A stretch of 9,520 bases of DNA from a virus (Duplodnaviria; Heunggongvirae; Uroviricota; Caudoviricetes). How positions within the stretch are numbered: position 1 is the first letter of the stretch; each line of letters opens with the position of its first letter. Positions 1-9,520 of the stretch are shown one piece after another. A program made the position numbers and the translations under genes. Location of the stretch: IMG/VR virus record IMGVR_UViG_2711768020_000003; one strand, 5' to 3'. The notes beneath the pieces are model-generated. The model saw only the letters and a list, made by a program, of their open reading frames with translations, did not search any database and had not been told where the DNA came from.

Positions 1-171
1 ATCTACGGCAGCAAGCCAGTAATGGGTTAAGTGATAACAGGTGTCTGGAAATATAGGGGCAAATCCAGCGTTCATCAGCCCCCGCATTGCCGACAGGATC
101 ACAGACGGGGGGCGCAACTGGTTGTCGTTCAACTGGCCCAGCTACCGTTCTTGTATCAGAGGTGTGGCTGC

Positions 172-1563
172 ATGACAACACCAGTCTGGCGTAATGATGA
201 CCTGGAAGGCGCTGTCATTGGCGCATTCTTTCTGCGTGGGGCAGATCATGAAGTGATGGATATTCTGATCACACTACCGGCGGACATTTTTTCTGTACGA
301 GCGTATCGGGATATCTACACAGGCATCTGCAGACAGGCCCGTGTTTCAGGAGTGATTGACCCCGTGCTGTTGTGTAATGAGATGCCGGAACTTGCCCCGG
401 TGATTACTGATACCGGGCGTAAAACCTGGGTGAAGTCTTCACTGGAGCACTATGTTGCAGCGTTGCGGCGCAATGCCGCACTGCGCGATGCAGAAAAAAC
501 ACTGAATGAGGCGCTGCAGAAATTACGTGATGCGCATACCTGTGAAGCAGCTGAAGATGCCCTGAAGGATGCGCAGAACATGATGGTCACACTGTCGACA
601 GGAAAGGGCGTCATTCAGCCGGTACATATTGATGATGTGCTTCCGGAAGTGGTTGAGCGTGTTGAATGCCGGAATCAGGGGCTGGAGAAATCCAGGACGT
701 TGATGACCGGTATTGATGAACTGGACGCAAAAACAGGCGGTATGGAGCCCGGAGACCTGGTATTCATTGCCGCCCGTCCTTCGATGGGGAAAACCGAACT
801 TGCGCTGGACATCATCGACAAGGTGACTGAGCAGGGGCATGGTGTGCTTCTGTTCACCATGGAGATGGCGAACATCCAGATTGGTGAACGTATGGTGTCT
901 GCGGCTGGAGGGATGCCAGTATCACGCCTGAAATCTGTGGCTCACTTTGAAGATGAAGACTGGGCGCGTTTCTCACAAGGGGTGGGGCGGATGACCGGGC
1001 GCAATATCTGGATGGTGGACCAGGCGAACCTGACCATTGATGAGATATGCGCAACAACGAAACACCATCTGATTAAACATCCGGAAACGGCGCTGGTGGT
1101 GGTTGATTATCTCGGGCTGATAAAAACCCGAACCACGGGGCGTCATGACCTTGCCGTGGGTGAAATCTCAAAGGGGCTTAAAGGCCTGGCAAAATCCGGT
1201 GGTTTTCCGTTGATTGCGCTGAGCCAGCTCTCCCGCGGTGTGGAGTCCAGACCCAATAAACGTCCCATGAACTCAGACCTGAAAAATTCCGGAGAAATAG
1301 AGGCGGATGCAGACATCATTCTGATGCTTTACAGGGATGAAGTGTACAACCCGGATACACAGGCTACAGGCATAGCAGAAATTAATATCACGAAACAACG
1401 TAACGGTTCTCTGGGGACGATTTACCGGCGTTTTTATAACGGACATTTTCTGCCTGTGGACCAGGAAAGCGCACAGGTTCTTTCCACCCCAATGCGGCAG
1501 CCCCAGCCGCGCAGATACAGCAATACACGTACCGACAGCAGTAAGATGGAGCGTTTCTTTTGA
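172..1563 (+). CDS. Replicative DNA helicase, DnaB-like (lambdoid phage replication protein, P22 gp12-like)
   Basis: Long ORF with Walker A motif AARPSMGKTELALD and the DnaB C-terminal block LIALSQLSRGVESRPNKRPMNSDLKNSGEIEADADIILMLYRDEVY. ATG at 172 is preceded by AGAGGTG about 9 nt upstream and gives about 463 aa, typical for DnaB. The ORF track start at 31 is a GTG directly after the upstream gene stop (TAA 28-30) and would add 47 residues that do not resemble a DnaB N-terminus. An upstream gene ends at 30 but is too truncated to identify. Confidence 0.88.
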   Translation: MTTPVWRNDDLEGAVIGAFFLRGADHEVMDILITLPADIFSVRAYRDIYTGICRQARVSGVIDPVLLCNEMPELAPVITDTGRKTWVKSSLEHYVAALRRNAALRDAEKTLNEALQKLRDAHTCEAAEDALKDAQNMMVTLSTGKGVIQPVHIDDVLPEVVERVECRNQGLEKSRTLMTGIDELDAKTGGMEPGDLVFIAARPSMGKTELALDIIDKVTEQGHGVLLFTMEMANIQIGERMVSAAGGMPVSRLKSVAHFEDEDWARFSQGVGRMTGRNIWMVDQANLTIDEICATTKHHLIKHPETALVVVDYLGLIKTRTTGRHDLAVGEISKGLKGLAKSGGFPLIALSQLSRGVESRPNKRPMNSDLKNSGEIEADADIILMLYRDEVYNPDTQATGIAEINITKQRNGSLGTIYRRFYNGHFLPVDQESAQVLSTPMRQPQPRRYSNTRTDSSKMERFF

Positions 1564-1817
1564 ACAACCAGACAATGACTTTTACCTCTGAACAATTGCG
1601 TAAACACGCGCAGGAAATGTTGCGACAGGCGGAACAACTGGAAAAAACAGGTGTAACAAAAGATGCCATTCGTCGGGATATGGTGCCAGCGCTCAGGGAA
1701 CTGATGCAGGCGAAACATCGCGCACAAAAAGCGGTGGATGAGCTCGTTGATTGTGTGGCAGAGCTGGAAACCAAAGTTGGAAAGTTTGAAAAAATGGTGC
1801 AGGAGGTGCTGCGCTGA
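1560..1817 (+). CDS. Hypothetical small protein (about 80 aa, predicted helical/coiled-coil), nin-region-like
   Basis: ORF between helicase and rusA. GGAG at 1548-1551 sits 8 nt upstream of a TTG at 1560; the alternative ATG is at 1575. Its stop TGA (1815-1817) overlaps the rusA ATG (1817), suggesting translational coupling. No family recognised. Confidence 0.5.
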   Translation: MNNQTMTFTSEQLRKHAQEMLRQAEQLEKTGVTKDAIRRDMVPALRELMQAKHRAQKAVDELVDCVAELETKVGKFEKMVQEVLR

Positions 1818-2188
1818 TGCGCCATGAGTTTATTTTACCTTATCCGCCGACGGTGAATACTTACTGGCGACGTCGTGGCAGCACATATTTTGTATCAAAA
1901 GTTGGTGAGCGTTATCGCCGTGATGTGACGCTAATTGTTCGCCAGCAGCGGCTGAAATTAAACCTGTCCGGAAGGCTGGCGATAAAGATTATTGCAGAGC
2001 CACCGGATAAGCGCCGTCGTGACCTGGACAATATCCTGAAAGCACCACTGGATGCGCTGACGCATGCCGGACTACTCATAGACGACGAGCAGTTTGATGA
2101 AATCAATATTGTGCGCGGTCAGCTCGTTCCTGGTGGGCGACTGGGCGTGAAGATTTATGAAATCACAGGTGATAACGATGGCGCGTGA
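1817..2188 (+). CDS. rusA: Holliday-junction resolvase RusA (crossover junction endodeoxyribonuclease)
   Basis: 123-aa ORF with RusA-family hallmarks: N-terminal [15 protein letters not shown], acidic catalytic region RRRDLDN and [14 protein letters not shown], and C-terminal GGRL. Size matches RusA (about 120 aa). GGAGG lies about 10 nt upstream of the ATG. Confidence 0.9.
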
Positions 2189-2564
2189 TATTCAGCAGGT
2201 TATGGAACGGTGGGGGGCTTGGGCTGCAAACACTCATGAAGATGTATCCTGGGCGTCGATCGCTGCTGGTTTTAAAGGGTTAATTCCGTCGAAAGTGAAA
2301 TCACGCCCTCAGTGTTCTGATGATGATGCAATGATAATTTGTGGCTGTATGGCCCGGTTGAACAAGAAAAATCAGGATTTGCACGATTTGCTGGTGGATT
2401 ATTACGTAGGTGGAATGACTTTTATGAGTCTGGCACGGAAACATGGGTGTTCGGATACCTGTATTGGCAAGCGCCTGCAGAAAGCGGAAGGGGTTATTGA
2501 TGGCATGTTGATGATGCTTGATATCCGGCTGGAGATGGACAGATACGTAGAACGAATTATGTAG
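2178..2564 (+). CDS. Late-gene antitermination protein Q (small Q family, QuuD-like as in DLP12-type prophages)
   Basis: ORF containing [18 protein letters not shown]...[24 protein letters not shown]...LLVDYYV...MTFMSLA...[15 protein letters not shown], which I recognise as the small Q antiterminator family. Start taken as ATG 2178 (AGGTGA 6 nt upstream), not the in-frame ATG 2157. It overlaps the rusA 3' end by 11 nt and a candidate late promoter begins 5 nt after its stop, the canonical Q-PR' arrangement. Confidence 0.85.
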
Positions 2565-2568
2565 GTGC

Positions 2569-2598
2569 TTGACCAGACACATTGTCCGGGGCTATATT
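2569..2598 (+). promoter_or_regulatory. Candidate sigma70 late promoter (PR'-like) immediately downstream of Q
   Basis: -35 TTGACC (2569-2574), 17-nt spacer, -10 CTATAT/TATATT (2592-2598). An intrinsic terminator follows about 60-80 nt downstream, mirroring the lambda PR'-qut-tR' layout. Confidence 0.55.
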
Positions 2599-2656
2599 CC
2601 TCACGCGCCAGCAAAATCTGGCGTCGGGATTGGAACCCCGGATAGAGACCGCGACA

Positions 2657-2684
2657 GACACACGCCGCGAGCGTGTTTTTTATT
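2657..2684 (+). terminator. Rho-independent terminator (tR'-like) ending a short leader transcript
   Basis: Stem ACACGC (2660-2665), loop CGCGA, stem GCGTGT (2671-2676), followed by TTTTTTATT. Confidence 0.6.
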
Positions 2685-2809
2685 GTCGTATGCACGCGCA
2701 CATCTGAATTATGGTGGGGCGCATGGGGGAGCTGAAAAGCTCGCCGGTCGGTTTCCCGGTAGTTCCAACCCTGTGCGTCTCACCACCCGATGATTGGAAC
2801 CTGACGGTG

Positions 2810-2838
2810 TTGACAGTTTCAGGTTTGCAGTTTACATT
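2810..2838 (+). promoter_or_regulatory. Second candidate sigma70 promoter upstream of the ORF6N gene
   Basis: -35 TTGACA (2810-2815), 17-nt spacer, -10 TACATT (2833-2838). A weak hairpin plus a run of 7 T (about 2885-2911) follows. Confidence 0.35.
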
Positions 2839-3044
2839 TCCCCGCGGTGCTCAAAACACCTCGAAAGCGGTATCCACACCCGATAGCCATGTGGTTTTTT
2901 TGTGTCCAGAATTCTTGGTTTATGACCGGGTGTGCGGCTAATACAATACCAGCAATGGAAATACGCCCGCCGACTTTCGACGGTTTTGAGCGCCCGGTCA
3001 CCCTCTCAAAAGGGGTAAATCAAAATATTCGAAAGGACATGTCT

Positions 3045-3608
3045 ATGAATCGCACGTCTATTGAAAAACTCCCGTCACTTACGCATAACCATCTTCCTGT
3101 CATGACAACAGAGCTGCTGGCTGATTTGTACGGAACAGAGCGCCAGCGTTTGACAAACAATTTCAATCGAAACAAAGAACGGTTTATAGAAGGTAAACAT
3201 TTTTTCCTGATAGAAGGTGATGCGTTACGAGAGTTGAAGAACGAAAACTCTTTAAGAGTTTCTGTGAAAATTGCCCGTAACGTTCGCTCCCTCATCCTCT
3301 GGACAGAACGTGGCGCAGCCCGTCACGCCAAAATGCTCGAAACCGATCAGGCGTGGGAAGTGTTCGAAAAACTGGAAGACTGTTATTTCAACCAGAAACA
3401 GCCACCAGCGGCACAAAACACATCTATCGAAAATGATGGATGCGCATTACTGAGCCACTTCGATAAACACGGTCAGGTTGAGTTCACGGAAAAGGTACCC
3501 GCCGATGCGATGGTATGTACTCTGGAACGGTTTAAATTTTATCTGGAGCAACACGGGTGGATCGTTGCCCGTAAAGAGCAACTGGTGGAGCGGTTGATGC
3601 GGTTTTAA
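3045..3608 (+). CDS. ORF6N-domain (KilA-N/Bro-N-like) putative DNA-binding protein, antirepressor-like, with uncharacterised C-terminal domain
   Basis: N-terminal region TTELLADLYGTERQRLTNNFNRNKERFIEGKHFFLIEGDALRELK...ARNVRSLILWTERGAARHAKMLETDQAWEVF matches the ORF6N pattern as I recall it. Start preferred at ATG 3045 (AAAGGA about 7 nt upstream); ATG 3039 is the alternative. The long upstream extension in the ORF track (from 2847) is rejected. An intrinsic terminator follows the stop. Confidence 0.75.
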   Translation: MNRTSIEKLPSLTHNHLPVMTTELLADLYGTERQRLTNNFNRNKERFIEGKHFFLIEGDALRELKNENSLRVSVKIARNVRSLILWTERGAARHAKMLETDQAWEVFEKLEDCYFNQKQPPAAQNTSIENDGCALLSHFDKHGQVEFTEKVPADAMVCTLERFKFYLEQHGWIVARKEQLVERLMRF

Positions 3609-3683
3609 AAATTTTTTCCGAAAACTTTACGATCGTAAAAAGTTGAATATCCTGTTAAGAGTGGTTACTACGCCACACAGCTT

Positions 3684-3709
3684 AAACCCGCCGATGAGCG
3701 GGTTTTTTT
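3684..3709 (+). terminator. Rho-independent terminator after the ORF6N gene
   Basis: AAACCCGC (3684-3691), loop CGATGA, GCGGGTTT (3698-3705), then a T run through 3709. Confidence 0.6.
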
Positions 3710-3759
3710 ATACCTGAAAAACGGCACAGGACGTTAAACGTGCTGGTGGTCAGATGAGT

Positions 3760-3788
3760 TTGCAGATGTGATGACATATGGTTATTAT
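3760..3788 (+). promoter_or_regulatory. Candidate sigma70 promoter for the tRNA array
   Basis: -35 TTGCAG (3760-3765), 17-nt spacer, -10 TATTAT (3783-3788); first tRNA starts at 3798. Confidence 0.5.
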
Positions 3789-3797
3789 TCTGCCTCC

Positions 3798-3874
3798 GGC
3801 CCTTTAGCTCAGTTGGTCAGAGCGAGCGACTCATAATCGCCAGGTCGCTGGTTCAAGTCCAGCAAGGGCCACCA
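3798..3874 (+). tRNA. tRNA-Ile (anticodon CAU, lysidine-type, ileX/ileZ-like, decodes AUA)
   Basis: Manual cloverleaf: 7-bp acceptor stem GGCCCTT/AAGGGCC, anticodon loop CTCATAA, T-arm GGTTCAAGTCC, encoded CCA. Anticodon arm and T-arm resemble E. coli tRNA-Ile2 from memory, not elongator tRNA-Met. Confidence 0.8.
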
Positions 3875-3875
3875 A

Positions 3876-3952
3876 CCACCACTAGCTCATCCGGATAGAG
3901 CATCAACCTTCTAAGTTGACGGTGCGAGGTTCGAGTCCTCGGTGGTGGGCCA
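3876..3952 (+). tRNA. tRNA-Arg (anticodon UCU, decodes AGA/AGG)
   Basis: Manual fold: acceptor CCACCAC/GTGGTGG, D-stem GCTC/GAGC, anticodon stem TCAAC/GTTGA with loop CTTCTAA, T-stem CGAGG/CCTCG with loop TTCGAGT, discriminator G, encoded CCA. Confidence 0.82.
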
Positions 3953-3954
3953 GC

Positions 3955-4030
<76 letters not shown>

Positions 4031-4033
4031 TAT

Positions 4034-4108
<75 letters not shown>

Positions 4109-4254
4109 GCGAGATTTGAGACGAAGGTTGTTATTTGCACTGACACAATATTGTGTGGGAATGTCTGACTCCTTACCATCTCCTGTTCTGTGATGTTGTT
4201 TTGTTGCAGTTCCAGTGCTCTTTTTTCAGCACCAGAATGATGAATCATCAGTCC

Positions 4255-4489
4255 NNNNNNNNNNNNNNNNNNNNNNNNNNNNNNNNNNNNNNNNNNNNNN
4301 NNNNNNNNNNNNNNNNNNNNNNNNNNNNNNNNNNNNNNNNNNNNNNNNNNNNNNNNNNNNNNNNNNNNNNNNNNNNNNNNNNNNNNNNNNNNNNNNNNNN
4401 NNNNNNNNNNNNNNNNNNNNNNNNNNNNNNNNNNNNNNNNNNNNNNNNNNNNNNNNNNNNNNNNNNNNNNNNNNNNNNNNNNNNNNNNN
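4255..4489. other. Run of 235 N (assembly gap or masked sequence)
   Basis: Directly visible. Hides the 5' part of the holin gene and its upstream region. Confidence 1.
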
Positions 4490-4591
4490 ATTGGTGTGCT
4501 GGGAAGTCTGCTTCTGGGGCTTCTGACTTATCTGACAAATCTGTATTTCAAAATAAGAGAAGACAAGCGTAAGGCTGCGAGAGGTGAATAA
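4490..4591 (+). CDS. Holin, 3' fragment (phage 21 S21-type pinholin-like); 5' end lies in the N run
   Basis: Frame-2 translation [33 protein letters not shown]-stop matches the C-terminus of the phage 21 class II holin as I recall it. Stop TAA (4589-4591) overlaps the ATG of the next gene (TAATG). Confidence 0.8.
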
Positions 4592-4748
4592 TGTCGCCAT
4601 CATTACGCAAGGCTGTTGCAGCTGCTATTGGTGGTGGGGCTGTTGCTATAGCATCTGTGTTAATCACTGGCCCAGGTGGTAACGATGGTCTGGAAGGTGT
4701 CAGCTACATACCATACAAAGATATCATTGGTGTATGGACTGTATGTCA
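4591..4748 (+). CDS. SAR endolysin (phage 21 R21-like lysozyme), 5' part; 3' part lies in the N run
   Basis: N-terminus [52 protein letters not shown] has a Gly/Ala-rich weakly hydrophobic signal-anchor-release segment followed by the lysozyme catalytic-region start, closely resembling R21. It follows the holin with overlapping stop and start. Confidence 0.85.
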
Positions 4749-5161
4749 NNNNNNNNNNNNNNNNNNNNNNNNNNNNNNNNNNNNNNNNNNNNNNNNNNNN
4801 NNNNNNNNNNNNNNNNNNNNNNNNNNNNNNNNNNNNNNNNNNNNNNNNNNNNNNNNNNNNNNNNNNNNNNNNNNNNNNNNNNNNNNNNNNNNNNNNNNNN
4901 NNNNNNNNNNNNNNNNNNNNNNNNNNNNNNNNNNNNNNNNNNNNNNNNNNNNNNNNNNNNNNNNNNNNNNNNNNNNNNNNNNNNNNNNNNNNNNNNNNNN
5001 NNNNNNNNNNNNNNNNNNNNNNNNNNNNNNNNNNNNNNNNNNNNNNNNNNNNNNNNNNNNNNNNNNNNNNNNNNNNNNNNNNNNNNNNNNNNNNNNNNNN
5101 NNNNNNNNNNNNNNNNNNNNNNNNNNNNNNNNNNNNNNNNNNNNNNNNNNNNNNNNNNNNN
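4749..5161. other. Run of 413 N (assembly gap or masked sequence)
   Basis: Directly visible. Hides the 3' part of the endolysin and the 5' parts of Rz and Rz1. Confidence 1.
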
Positions 5162-5338
5162 GCAGTCTGTCAGTCAGTGCGTGAAGCCACCACCGCCTCC
5201 GGCGTGGATAATGCAACCAGCCCCCGACTGGCAGACACCGCTGAACGGGATTATTTCACCCTCAGAGAGCGGCTGATGACGATGCAGATGCAACTGGAAG
5301 GGGCACAGGAGTATATCCGCACTCAGTGCATTAAGTAG
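5162..5338 (+). CDS. Spanin inner-membrane subunit Rz (i-spanin), 3' fragment
   Basis: C-terminal translation ...ADTAERDYFTLRERLMTMQMQLEGAQEYIRTQCIK-stop resembles the lambda-family Rz C-terminus. The 5' end is in the N run. Confidence 0.8.
   Translation, partial: AVCQSVREATTASGVDNATSPRLADTAERDYFTLRERLMTMQMQLEGAQEYIRTQCIK
5163..5276 (+). CDS. Spanin outer-membrane lipoprotein Rz1 (o-spanin), 3' fragment, embedded in the +1 frame of Rz
   Basis: Translation QSVSQCVKPPPPPAWIMQPAPDWQTPLNGIISPSESG-stop is proline-rich and lies fully inside Rz in another frame, the classic embedded Rz1 architecture. The lipobox region is in the N run. Confidence 0.8.
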   Translation, partial: QSVSQCVKPPPPPAWIMQPAPDWQTPLNGIISPSESG

Positions 5339-5380
5339 CCTTTTTATCGTGGTAAACATTTCGCAGGGTATGAGGTATTT

Positions 5381-5731
5381 ATGCCATCACTAATCCCACG
5401 TGCCTGCCGTAAGCGTGGATGTGCAGGTACAACCACAGACAGTTCGGGTTACTGCGATAAACATCGCGGTGAAGGCTGGGTGCAGCACCAGCGCGGACTG
5501 AGCCGCCACCAGCGTGGCTATGGCTCAAAATGGACGGTGATTCGTGCCCGTATTCTGAAGCGCGATAAAGGTCTGTGTCAGTTGTGTCTGCGTGTCGGTG
5601 TGGTGAGCGAGGCGAAAACCGTCGACCACATCATCCCGAAAGCGCATGGCGGAACAGACGCAGACAGCAACCTGCAGAGTCTGTGCTGGCCCTGCCATAA
5701 AGCGAAAACAGCGCGCGAACGAATCCGGTGA
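5381..5731 (+). CDS. HNH endonuclease (phage packaging-associated HNH)
   Basis: 116-aa ORF with Cys-rich N-terminus (CRKRGC...CDKH) and HNH core DHIIPKAHGGTDADSNLQSLCWPCHKAKT. GAGGT lies about 5 nt upstream of the ATG. Position just upstream of the terminase genes is typical of HK97-like cos phages. Confidence 0.85.
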   Translation: MPSLIPRACRKRGCAGTTTDSSGYCDKHRGEGWVQHQRGLSRHQRGYGSKWTVIRARILKRDKGLCQLCLRVGVVSEAKTVDHIIPKAHGGTDADSNLQSLCWPCHKAKTARERIR

Positions 5732-5753
5732 TAATTATTCTCACTTGTAGGGA

Positions 5754-5813
5754 GGGGCGGGGCAAATCCCTGTGACCTGACGTCTTCCGGACTGCCCGCC
5801 CCATCGTTTTTTT
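5754..5813 (+). terminator. GC-rich long-loop hairpin followed by a T run (terminator-like; lies in the expected cos region)
   Basis: GGGGCGGGGCA (5754-5764) pairs with TGCCCGCCCC (5793-5802) with one bulge, about 28-nt loop, then ATCG and TTTTTTT (5807-5813). The function is uncertain. Confidence 0.3.
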
Positions 5814-5852
5814 ATACCCGCGAAAAATGAAATTTAACCAGGAGTGCCGCAT

Positions 5853-6347
5853 ATGGCTGGAACGGCGGGGCGTTCCGGGCGTCGCCCCAAGCCAACGGCG
5901 CGCAAGGCGCTGGCCGGAAACCCCGGCAAGCGAGCCCTGAACAAAGATGAACCTGTTTTTACGCCCATCAAAGGTGTTGAGCCACCAGAGTGGTTCGCTG
6001 AAGAAGATCTCCCTCTCGCCACGATCATGTGGCAACTGACAACCAAAGAACTCTGCGGTCAGGGCCTGCTGTGCGTGACTGACCTGGCGGTACTTGAGCG
6101 GTGGTGCGTGGCCTATGAGTTCTGGCGACGTGCCGTGAAAAATATTGCCATACAGGGCAACACCATCACCGGTGCAATGGGCGGCAGGGTCAAAAATCCG
6201 GAGCTGACCGCCAAAAAAGAACAGGAGTCCGAGATGAGCAGCACGGGGGCAATGCTCGGACTCGACCCCAGCAGCCGCCAGCGTCTGATTGGCCTGGCGG
6301 GGCAGAAGAAAGCCACTAACCCGTTTCTGAAAATTATCGAATCATGA
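5853..6347 (+). CDS. Terminase small subunit (P27 family)
   Basis: N-terminus [34 protein letters not shown] is the signature of P27-family small terminases. AGGAG (5840-5844) lies 8 nt upstream of ATG 5853. Stop overlaps the large-subunit start (ATGA at 6344-6347). Confidence 0.85.
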
Positions 6348-8077
6348 GCCGGAAATCTTACCCCAACGTAAATGCTGCAAATCAGTATGCCCGGGATGTC
6401 GTGCGCGGAAAGATTGTTGCCTGCCAGTTTGTGATTCAGGCCTGCCAGCGCCATCTTGATGACCTGATGGCGGAAAAAAGTAAGTCGTTTCGTTACCGCT
6501 TCGACAAGGACCTGGCTGAACGGGCCGCGAAATTTATTCAGCTGTTGCCGCACACCAAGGGGGAGTGGGCATTCAAACGGATGCCCATCACGCTGGAGCC
6601 GTGGCAGCTATTTGTGATCTGCTGTGCGTTTGGCTGGGTCAATAAAGGCACCCGGTTGCGCCGCTTCCGGGAGGTGTACACCGAAATCCCCCGTAAGAAC
6701 GGCAAATCAGCAATCTCTGCCGGTGTTGCCCTGTATTGTTTTGCCTGTGATAACGAGTTTGGCGCGGAAGTGTATTCCGGTGCCACGACAGAGAAACAGG
6801 CGTGGGAAGTCTTTCGCCCGGCGCGACTGATGTGTAAACGCACACCCATGCTGACGGAAGCGTTCGGGATTGAGGTTAACGCCTCAAACATGAACCGTCC
6901 GGAGGATGGCGCGCGGTTTGAACCGCTGATCGGCAACCCAGGTGATGGTTCATCACCCCACTGTGCCGTGGTTGATGAATATCACGAGCATGCCACCGAT
7001 GCGCTTTATACCACAATGCTTACCGGGATGGGGGCGCGACGTCAGCCACTGATGTGGGCCATCACCACCGCCGGGTACAACATTGAGGGGCCGTGCTACG
7101 ACAAGCGGCGGGAAGTCATCGAGATGCTCAACGGCTCGGTGCCTAACGATGAACTGTTCGGGATCATCTATACCGTTGATGAAGGTGACGACTGGACCGG
7201 CCCGCAGGTGCTGGAAAAAGCCAATCCAAATATTGGCGTGTCGGTTTATCGCGAATTTTTGTTAAGTCAGCAGCAGCGTGCGAAAAATAACGCCCGTCTG
7301 GCAAACGTCTTTAAAACAAAACACCTCAATATCTGGGTGTCGGCGCGTTCGGCGTATTTCAACTTGGTGAGCTGGCAGAGCTGCGAGGATAAATCACTGA
7401 CCCTTGAGCAGTTCGAGGGGCAGCCGTGCATTCTGGCCTTTGACCTGGCGCGTAAGCTGGATATGAACAGCATGGCGCGACTTTATACCCGCGAGATTGA
7501 CGGTAAAACGCATTACTACAGTGTGGCCCCGCGTTTCTGGGTACCGTATGACACGGTGTACAGCGTCGAGAAAAATGAAGATCGACGGACAGCCGAACGC
7601 TTTCAGAAATGGGTGGAAATGGGCGTTCTGACCGTTACCGATGGTGCGGAGGTGGATTATCGCTACATCCTCGAGGAGGCCAAAGCGGCGAACAAAATCA
7701 GCCCGGTCAGTGAGTCACCCATCGACCCCTTCGGGGCGACCGGGTTGTCACATGACCTTGCTGATGAAGACCTGAATCCCGTCACTATCGTCCAGAACTT
7801 CACCAATATGTCCGATCCGATGAAAGAGCTGGAAGCAGCGATTGAATCGGGACGTTTTCATCATGACGGCAATCCCATCATGACCTGGTGTATCGGCAAC
7901 GTGGTCGGCAAAAACATGCCGGGTAACGATGATGTGGTGAAACCCGTCAAAGAGCAGGCGGAAAACAAAATCGATGGTGCAGTTGCGCTGATTATGGCGG
8001 TTGGCAGAGCCATGCTGTACGAGAAAGAAGACACGCTGTCTGACCACATTGAGTCCTACGGGATCCGCTCGCTTTAA
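6344..8077 (+). CDS. Terminase large subunit (TerL, ATPase/nuclease)
   Basis: 577-aa ORF directly coupled to the small subunit gene. Size, position and an ATPase-like N-terminal region ([13 protein letters not shown]...) fit HK97-type large terminases. Confidence 0.88.
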
Positions 8078-8088
8078 CTGAGGTAATT

Positions 8089-8271
8089 ATGATCATGCTG
8101 ATTCTCGCGCCTCTGGTGGGCGTGCTGGGTGCGCTTTTGCTGGCGTATGGTGCCTGGCTGATTTATCCCCCGGCGGGTTTTGTTGTTGCCGGGGCGCTGT
8201 GCCTGTTCTGGTCGTGGCTGGTGGCGCGATATCTCGACCGTACACGGCAGTCTGTCGGCGGAGGTAAATAG
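8089..8271 (+). CDS. Hypothetical small membrane protein (60 aa, two predicted transmembrane helices)
   Basis: GAGGT (8080-8084) precedes ATG 8089 (second ATG at 8095). Two hydrophobic segments, [23 protein letters not shown] and [19 protein letters not shown]. Stop TAG (8269-8271) overlaps the GTG at 8271 that has a strong ribosome-binding site for the portal reading frame. The ORF is short, so coding status is not certain. Confidence 0.4.
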
Positions 8272-9427
8272 TGTTCTTTTCGGGATTATTTCAACGAAAA
8301 AGCGATGTGCCGGTGACCACGCCAGCAGAACTGCTGATGCTATCGGGCTGTCATACGACACCTATACCGGAAAGCGGATCAGTAGCCAGCGGGCCATGCG
8401 CCTGACGGCGGTCTATTCTTGCGTCAGGGTGCTGGCAGAGTCTGTTGGTATGCTGCCCTGCAGTCTCTACAAAATCAGCGGTACCCTGAAAACACGGGCG
8501 GTGGATGAACGACTGCATAAGTTGGTTTCGGCAAAACCTAATGGCTACATGACACCGCAGGAATTCTGGGAGCTGGTTATTGTCTGCCTGTGTCTACGGG
8601 GGAATTTTTACGCCTACAAGGTAAAGGCACTGGGAGAAGTGGTGGAGCTTCTTCCGATAGATCCGGGCTGTGTGGAACCGAAGCTGAACAGCCAGTGGCA
8701 GCCGGTTTATCAGGTGACGTTTCCGGATGGTTCCGTGGATGTGTTGACCCAGAATGAAATCTGGCATGTGCGCACCCTGACGCTGGATGGACTTGTCGGG
8801 CTGAATCCCATTGCGTATGCGCGTGAGGCCATTTCACTGGCAGCGGCAACCGAGGAGCACGGTGCCAGGTTGTTTAGTAATGGTGCGGTGACATCCGGTG
8901 TGTTGCGTACGGAACAAAAGCTCACGCCGGATGCTTACGAGCGTCTGAAGAAAGATTTTGAGGAGTGTCACACGGGGCTTGGCAATGCTCACCGCCCGAT
9001 GATTCTGGAAATGGGGCTGGACTGGAAGTCGATGGCGCTGAACGCCGAGGACAGTCAGTTCCTGGAAACCCGCAAGTTTCAGCTGGAAGAAATCTGTCGT
9101 CTGTTCCGGGTGCCGTTGCACATGGTGCAGAACACCGATCGCGCCACCTTCAACAATATCGAAGAGCTGGGGCTGGGATTTATCAACTATTCACTGGTGC
9201 CGTATCTGACCCGCATCGAACAGCGGATCAACACCGGACTGGTACGAAAAAGTAAGCAGGGCGTTTATTACGCCAAATTTAACGCCGGGGCGTTACTGCG
9301 CGGGGATATGAAGTCCCGTTTTGAAGCCTACGCCACCGGGATCAACTGGGGAATTTACTCTTCCAATGACTGCCGCGACCTGGAAGATATGAATCCGCGT
9401 CCCGGTGGTGTAATGCCGATCAGTTAA
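8271..9427 (+). CDS. Portal protein, HK97 family; apparent frameshift near the 5' end (main body 8396-9427 in a different frame from the best start at 8271)
   Basis: Body contains the portal-typical N-proximal motif RLTAVYSCVRVLAESVGMLP and is about 340-385 aa, downstream of TerL. The only strong initiation signal is GGAGGT (8260-8265) then GTG 8271 after a 5-nt spacer, but that frame stops at TGA 8403-8405 after 44 codons (MFFSGLFQRKSDVPVTTPAELLML...). The body frame has no ATG before 8396 and only TTG codons at 8180-8188 with no ribosome-binding site. Confidence 0.8.
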
Positions 9428-9459
9428 GGATCAGTTGACCGATCCAGTGGCTGTGTAAG

Positions 9460-9494
9460 AATCCGGAAACGCTCACTTGTTTCCGGATTTTTTT
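9460..9494 (+). terminator. Rho-independent terminator downstream of the portal gene
   Basis: AATCCGGAAAC (9460-9470), loop GCTCACTT, GTTTCCGGATT (9479-9489), T run to 9494. Perfect 11-bp stem. Confidence 0.6.
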
Positions 9495-9520
9495 ATGCAC
9501 ATTGGACAGGCTCTTGATCT

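Follow-up and report, generated by a model that had tools for sequence, protein, structure and literature searches.

A portal pseudogene with two lesions in an IS-bounded prophage fragment of Shigella sonnei

Introduction

What has placed the two parts of a phage portal gene in different reading frames: a sequencing error, the inactivation of the gene in a defective prophage, or recoding during its expression? This question is raised by the viral record IMGVR_UViG_2711768020_000003 (Caudoviricetes), a stretch of 9,520 nt to which we refer as the window. A sequence-only reading had placed the start of its portal gene at a GTG at 8271 behind the motif GGAGGT, in a frame that encodes a portal-like N-terminus and stops at 8403-8405, and we could verify each of these coordinates. 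Having compared the locus with intact relatives and with S. sonnei assemblies, we conclude, at a probability of roughly 93%, that the window is an IS-bounded fragment (~9.3 kb), in the Shigella sonnei chromosome, of an HK97-type temperate phage resembling phiP27 and SfIV, and that its portal gene is a two-lesion pseudogene that arose by ordinary decay and not by recoding.

Gene order and edges of the prophage fragment

From IS to IS, the fragment carries dnaB, rusA, Q, four tRNA genes, lysis genes, HNH, the genes for the small (TerS) and large (TerL) terminase subunits, ymfR and the portal gene. Its left boundary is formed by the end of an IS3-family insertion sequence (IS2-like, with ORFs of 121 aa and 301 aa) at positions 1-68: position 1 of the window equals position 982 of locus L017, in which the IS repeat spans 1-1049 and thus ends at window position 68. 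Homology of E. coli prophages to the window starts at 68, the phage dnaB directly adjoins the IS3-family end, and the matching E. coli elements are named 'IS3 family transposase' by PGAP. An inverted copy of the element, 97.5% identical, is found 3' of IS4 in most S. sonnei genomes, so that the prophage fragment is bracketed by inverted IS copies.

Directly upstream of the region in question, the ORF list contains an intact TerL gene (6344-8077, + strand; 577 aa), the product of which matches Pfam TerL_ATPase and TerL_nuclease and has an E. coli homologue of equal length. The exact TerL protein of the window is encoded by S. sonnei Ss046 (CP000038.1) and is present in 4305 blocks of the assembly collection. 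It is followed by ymfR (8089-8271, + strand), the gene of a small membrane protein of 60 aa that is called 'protein YmfR' or 'membrane protein' in homologues. The window has intact ORFs for HNH, both terminase subunits and ymfR, and intact lysis genes are called in unmasked S. sonnei loci.

Four tandem tRNA genes (Met-CAT, Arg-TCT, Thr-TGT and Gly-TCC) lie at 3798-4108, between the ORF6N/antiterminator region and the lysis genes; this is the usual position of the tRNA clusters of lambdoid and Stx-type phages. Two runs of N interrupt the window at 4255-4489 (235 bases) and 4749-5161 (413 bases), and the genes for holin, lysozyme and spanin fall into the sequence masked by them. Complete S. sonnei genomes have 663 nt in place of the gap at 4240-4489 (250 nt, of which 235 are N) and 624 nt in place of the run of 413 N; as the runs are shorter than the sequence they replace, the coordinates of the window are not collinear with the real genome there. 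A further viral contig, L027 (IMGVR_UViG_2734482591_000008), is 100% identical to the window from 5162 on, frameshift and IS4 junction included. Upstream of the lysis genes it matches the window over 149 nt only, at 89.9% identity. With an identical late region and a different early region, the same dead portal gene thus stands beside another early region in at least one genome.

Intact homologues of the portal gene

A megablast search of complete E. coli genomes returned about 1,100 records that cover most of the region, the best of them 93-94% identical and annotated 'terminase large subunit', 'ymfR' and 'phage portal protein'. For detailed comparison we used 14 intact homologues, i.e. the E. 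coli prophages L001, L002 and L034-L041, the phages phiP27 and SfIV, the metagenome contig L033 and the viral contig L026. In 13 of these the gene encodes 413 aa and has no internal stop, and in L026 it is open to the end of the locus. The portal CDS of L001 and L002 (1242 nt, 413 aa) starts at a GTG that overlaps the ymfR stop and is equivalent to 8271; the same GTG start is found in phiP27 (gene L38) and in Shigella phage SfIV, where the small upstream gene is missing from the annotation, and in eight further prophages that were found via the capsid protein. Common to all 14 are the context (c/t)gg(c/t)ggaggtaaataGTG and an N-terminus of 12 residues followed by (A/V/E)PVTTPAELA(E/D)AIGLSYDTYTGK. 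The Shine-Dalgarno context cggcggaggtaaataGTG is present in all of them but L037 and L033, which are off by one or two upstream bases.

This uninterrupted arrangement extends well beyond the close relatives. Searching with the repaired 71-aa N-terminus by tblastn, we obtained single-piece matches with at least 80% coverage in 72 phage records, as far as phages of Firmicutes, which means that one frame across this site is the rule. Scans of viral and metagenome sequences for the intact allele yielded only L026 and L033 (94.8% and 81.8% identical to the window in the portal region); we rejected both as a near-identical intact ancestor because these identities are too low. An exact-pattern scan of species-representative genomes for either allele gave no match, and our guess is that Shigella may not be separate from E. 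coli in that set.

The start site and the two reading frames

The Shine-Dalgarno sequence GGAGGT of the portal gene (8260-8265, + strand) lies 5 nt upstream of the GTG at 8271, whose first base is at the same time the last base of the TAG stop codon of ymfR (8089-8271). This overlap of stop and start by one base (TAGTG, 8269-8273) is kept wherever the small gene has been annotated or called in a homologue. It suggests translational coupling between ymfR and the portal gene, which in S. sonnei would now feed a 44-codon dead-end frame.

In the original frame, codons 1-21 (8271-8333, + strand) represent the authentic 5' end of the gene, as judged by alignment with intact homologues. Translation in this frame then continues as LMLSGCHTTPIPESGSVASGPCA, an out-of-frame tail of 23 residues (8334-8405, + strand) that ends at the premature TGA at 8403-8405 and brings the product to 44 aa in all. 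No Pfam match was found for the 44-aa peptide, and its exact sequence is absent from the protein collection. The portal body, i.e. the ancestral codons 22-380, occupies 8334-9410 (+ strand) in the -1 frame relative to the start codon and is recognised through PF04860 and through structure and protein matches. Taken mechanically, the long ORF of that frame runs from 8180 to 9427 and holds a TTG at 8180 and an ATG at 8396; gene callers report the part from 8396 to 9427 (+ strand), 343 aa in length, as 'portal protein [Shigella sonnei]', a product that is truncated at its N-terminus and ends with the IS4-derived residues VMPIS before the stop. That the portal body continues in a different frame had already been proposed from the letters alone, and indeed the -1 frame with ATG 8396 carries the Pfam Phage_portal body.

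Homologous portal genes starting at the equivalent of ATG 8396 or of TTG 8180, lacking the peptide encoded from 8271, would have spoken for an intact gene with another start. In all intact homologues the start is the GTG that corresponds to 8271, with the same 21-residue N-terminal peptide behind it, and on these grounds we rejected TTG 8180/8183 and ATG 8396 as real starts.

A one-base deletion in codon 22

The first 21 portal residues of the window match the 14 intact portal N-termini at 20-21 of 21 positions. The DNA alignment requires a single gap, with GA(G)CTGGC(G/A/T)GA in the homologues standing against GAACTGCTGA in the window (CTGGC to CTGC): one G of the ancestral CTG-GCN is gone at 8333/8334 (+ strand), in codon 22, as seen both in the alignments and in the sequences of the individual homologues. 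The sequence-only reading had called for a net 1-nt insertion somewhere between about 8300 and 8400 to join the frames, and the alignment with intact homologues now pins the lesion to 8333/8334.

Upon restoration of this G, the 380 codons up to 9410 encode a protein that is 97.6% identical to the intact portal of E. coli A36 and 97.4% identical to that of phiP27. The repaired 380-aa translation matches PF04860 (Phage_portal) with E = 2.5e-107 and 359.2 bits (gathering cut-off 39.1), residues 47-373 covering positions 2-321 of the 321 of the profile, and its best match among solved structures is the HK97 portal (8cez/8fql; E = 4.6e-51, query residues 27-380). To judge from these comparisons, the frameshift signal is far beyond chance. 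The gene also stands where a portal gene of the HK97 family is expected, i.e. behind TerL (TerL 6344-8077, ymfR 8089-8271, portal from 8271), and the same order was found in 12 annotated homologous loci. By its sequence, the portal gene of the window is a member of the HK97 family (PF04860) by descent, yet a pseudogene from which the full protein could not be encoded.

The deletion allele in S. sonnei genomes

We compared 20 loci, taken from 18 distinct S. sonnei assemblies, and found the same 151 nt, running from the Shine-Dalgarno sequence to the TGA, in all of them (18/18 assemblies) and the repaired allele in none. The finished Ss046 chromosome (CP000038.1) is among these assemblies, as are many further complete chromosomes and some short draft contigs. 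The deletion allele is also present in six IMG/VR contigs. Moreover, the product of the 343-aa ORF that starts at ATG 8396 occurs in 1695 blocks and on at least 1000 contigs, and the named members of its cluster are all S. sonnei. Both the deletion and the IS4 insertion described below are identical in all S. sonnei assemblies examined, from which we infer that the two lesions were fixed early in the lineage.

An IS4 insertion in codon 381

Homology to intact portal genes stops at 9410. From 9411 to 9520 (+ strand) the window consists of IS4 sequence, namely the left end of the element (TAATGCCGATCAG...). The insertion point lies in portal codon 381, and the last 33 codons of the gene are replaced by VMPIS and a stop. 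The assignment rests on IS4-annotated matches and on alignment with the intact portal and with an IS4 end of E. coli J53: positions 9411-9520 are identical to the IS4 end beside yjdN in this strain, and in E. coli the matching features bear the annotation 'IS4-like element IS4 family transposase'. The apparent natural stop codon of the portal ORF (9425-9427) is itself IS4 sequence. Each of the 17 loci long enough to include the junction shows it in identical form. In other S. sonnei assemblies, draft contigs break off at 9403-9405, at the start of the repeat. Regarding the damage to the portal gene, the sequence-only reading had thus recognised the frameshift correctly and missed the truncation of the 3' end by IS4.

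Beyond IS4, the S. sonnei genomes differ from one another. In most complete genomes the inverted, IS2-like element of the IS3 family (ORFs of 121 aa and 301 aa) cuts IS4, and bamE-recN come next; L006, L007, L021 and L024 instead have a full IS4 and then raiA-pheL-pheA-tyrA. This difference indicates IS-mediated rearrangement of the portal locus within S. sonnei. By BLAST, neither the portal 3' end nor the protease or capsid gene was found in the ten S. sonnei loci L003-L012, and none of the three was called in the 10-kb flanks of L016-L025. Likewise, no integrase, head or tail genes were called within 10 kb on either side of the S. sonnei fragment. The suggestion that the portal gene was inactivated in a defective prophage gains support from these observations, namely the second lesion (IS4 at 9411), the IS at both ends and the lack of downstream head and tail genes.

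IS4 generates target-site duplications of 11-13 bp. In the window, the left flank of IS4 ends with GTCCCGGTGGTG, and the only right junction that we found (L032, 4196/4197), with the sequence CTGACTGGCATTA up to the junction and GTCCCGGTGGTGATGTC after it, opens with the same 12 bp; in the complete S. sonnei genomes the right side is rearranged. The L032 junction would fit a simple IS4 insertion with a 12-bp target duplication.

The record in question (L032; IMGVR_UViG_2663762996_000003, 1-6300) contains an N at position 2819, which marks it as a scaffold join. The portal deletion allele recurs in its left part, with 3 mismatches in 2442 nt, and the IS4 site there is uninterrupted. Its right part consists of IS4 (from an internal hairpin, with the loop inverted), GTCCCGGTGGTG, the portal 3' end, protease, capsid and tail genes, i.e. 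a complete head and tail module. On the basis of this arrangement, L032 probably represents a join of two related prophages. Searches for its capsid and protease by homology, cluster and contig led to intact prophages of E. coli, Salmonella and 'Enterobacteriaceae' and to no recognisable S. sonnei record, and the right IS4/portal junction was found in L032 only. The head and tail module of the S. sonnei prophage may have been lost by deletion or displaced by an IS4-mediated inversion, either of which would leave the portal gene disrupted.

Competing explanations for the split frame

An artefact of sequencing or assembly, with an intact real portal gene and a G that is merely absent from the record, is the simplest alternative, as single-base indels are the commonest kind of assembly error and some long-read S. 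sonnei assemblies (L019, L022 and L025) do contain additional, unshared frameshifts in TerL and DnaB. Yet the identical deletion is present in 18 independent assemblies, among them the finished chromosome CP000038.1, and in many draft contigs, no repaired allele was found, and the deletion site is a GG dinucleotide and no homopolymer run. The option of a sequencing error, which had been left standing from the window alone, is excluded by this identity, and we consider the chance that the missing G is an artefact to be negligible. Slightly more weight, though still hardly any, can be given to recoding, by which a programmed -1 ribosomal frameshift or transcriptional slippage within 8271-8403 would join the frames into a near-full-length portal. 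The -1 frame is open over the entire overlap, and one weak motif prone to shifting, A_AAA_AG at 8297-8303, could allow the Lys tRNA in the P site to re-pair in the -1 frame. However, 8271-8405 contains no canonical X_XXY_YYZ heptamer and no homopolymer longer than A5, the 97 nt at 8304-8400 fold like shuffled sequences (MFE -30.4 kcal/mol versus a shuffle mean of -29.6, z = -0.27), and A_AAA_AG is also present in intact homologues, where no shift is needed. A shift at 8297 would replace 11 conserved residues, and IS4 would truncate the product at codon 381 all the same, with no adjoining protease or capsid gene. Furthermore, a split frame was seen neither in the 14 close homologues nor in any of the 72 phage records that cover at least 80% of the repaired N-terminus. 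Recoding had been ranked as the least likely option from the letters of the window, and the slippery-site scan, the downstream fold and the frames of the homologues gave no support for it.

A different kind of alternative accepts the lesions and assumes that what is left has been put to use: the 343-aa fragment from ATG 8396, or the whole prophage fragment, would be expressed and kept for a host function, e.g. interference with head assembly when other HK97-type phages superinfect the cell. In favour of this, S. sonnei is fixed for the allele with essentially no variation, nearly the whole PF04860 domain is left in the 343-aa fragment, and the terminase, HNH and ymfR ORFs of the window as well as the lysis genes of unmasked S. 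sonnei loci are intact. Against this, S. sonnei is young and nearly clonal, so that invariance is uninformative on selection, the coupling from ymfR now leads into the 44-aa dead-end frame, and IS elements flank and truncate the region differently in several assemblies, consistent with neutral decay. We regard such a retained function as improbable, if a little less so than recoding. Its most specific form, in which a truncated portal made from ATG 8396 or by rare -1 slippage at A_AAA_AG (8297) is retained together with the terminase, HNH and lysis genes to hinder capsid assembly or packaging of phiP27/SfII-type phages, or for another host role, falls somewhat below the general idea and is offered as a speculation with long odds against it.

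Decay of the portal gene

Decay of the gene by two lesions is the reading that we prefer, and it has three parts. Owing to the loss of one G at 8333/8334, in codon 22, translation from the GTG at 8271 ends after 44 residues at the TGA at 8403-8405. As an independent second lesion, IS4 is inserted in portal codon 381 at 9411. Beyond IS4, another IS or chromosomal genes stand, in every complete genome examined, in the place of the prohead protease, capsid and tail genes. The mechanism is plain mutational decay of a prophage within a genome undergoing IS expansion. Under this reading, S. sonnei would make no functional portal from the locus, and the element would be unable to form particles.

The age of the lesions can be approached through the substitutions in the gene. 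Compared to its closest intact relative, the repaired portal shows a dN/dS of 0.04, a value that fits recent inactivation. As it was shaped before the gene was inactivated, it does not separate a recently dead gene from a functional one and is no argument for present function. Three amino acid changes (A13V, R233C and P365S) are absent from four reference homologues, and 10 synonymous changes are private to the window; V13 is not unique to the deletion allele, as it is also found in the intact portals of L034-L041. As far as substitution patterns can tell, the portal gene was under purifying selection until recently, and its lesions appear young relative to the divergence from phiP27-type phages.

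Relation to known portal genes and implications

The closest named relatives are the portal genes of the Stx2e phage phiP27 (L38, NP_543090.1), of SfIV/SfII and of Salmonella phage ST64B, which have the order TerS, TerL, 60-aa membrane protein and portal, as in the window, as well as the same Shine-Dalgarno sequence and the same GTG overlapping the upstream stop. With the G restored, the portal gene of the window is 93.7% identical to that of phiP27 at the nucleotide level and 97.4% at the protein level; nucleotide identity to SfIV, SfII and ST64B is 88.5-88.6%. In these phages the portal gene is uninterrupted (413 aa) and followed by protease and capsid genes, whereas the window has the deletion in codon 22, IS4 in codon 381 and no head genes thereafter. 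The likeness to gp3 of HK97 (8cez/8fql) denotes family membership by sequence alone. A similar case is presumably the cryptic prophage e14 of E. coli K-12, which we take to be a defective prophage with ymfR followed by a disrupted portal gene, beeE. The portal gene of the window is a different allele with a different lesion, and its best E. coli match (93.6% identical) is intact.

The fate of this gene agrees with what has been described for Shigella genomes. IS1, IS2, IS4, IS600 and IS911 are expanded in all Shigella species, and in S. sonnei, where IS copies (IS4 and IS2 among them) number in the hundreds, IS, nonsense mutations or frameshift indels have inactivated 719 CDS (Hawkey et al. 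2020, PMC7373316). The locus in the window fits this pattern, with both kinds of lesion (IS and indel) and, in addition, IS-mediated rearrangement of the flanks. The study treats chromosomal gene loss in general, and no mention of the portal gene examined here was found in the text consulted.

Ss046 is annotated with a 'putative portal protein' of 414 aa (AAZ89394.1) that starts at the TTG at 8183 inside ymfR and is read in the -1 frame (8183-9427); this start has no counterpart in the intact homologues, and its use hides the frameshift. Thousands of S. sonnei assemblies carry entries of 343 aa or 336 aa named 'phage portal protein (partial)'. The portal pseudogene is an ordinary one, and the fragment is already present in public databases as a truncated 'portal protein'.

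The relevance of our findings lies mainly in annotation hygiene, the deposited 343-aa and 336-aa 'portal proteins' of S. sonnei being pseudogene fragments. The deletion and the portal::IS4 junction are stable markers of the S. sonnei lineage, and the locus is a textbook case of prophage decay in an IS-rich, host-restricted pathogen.
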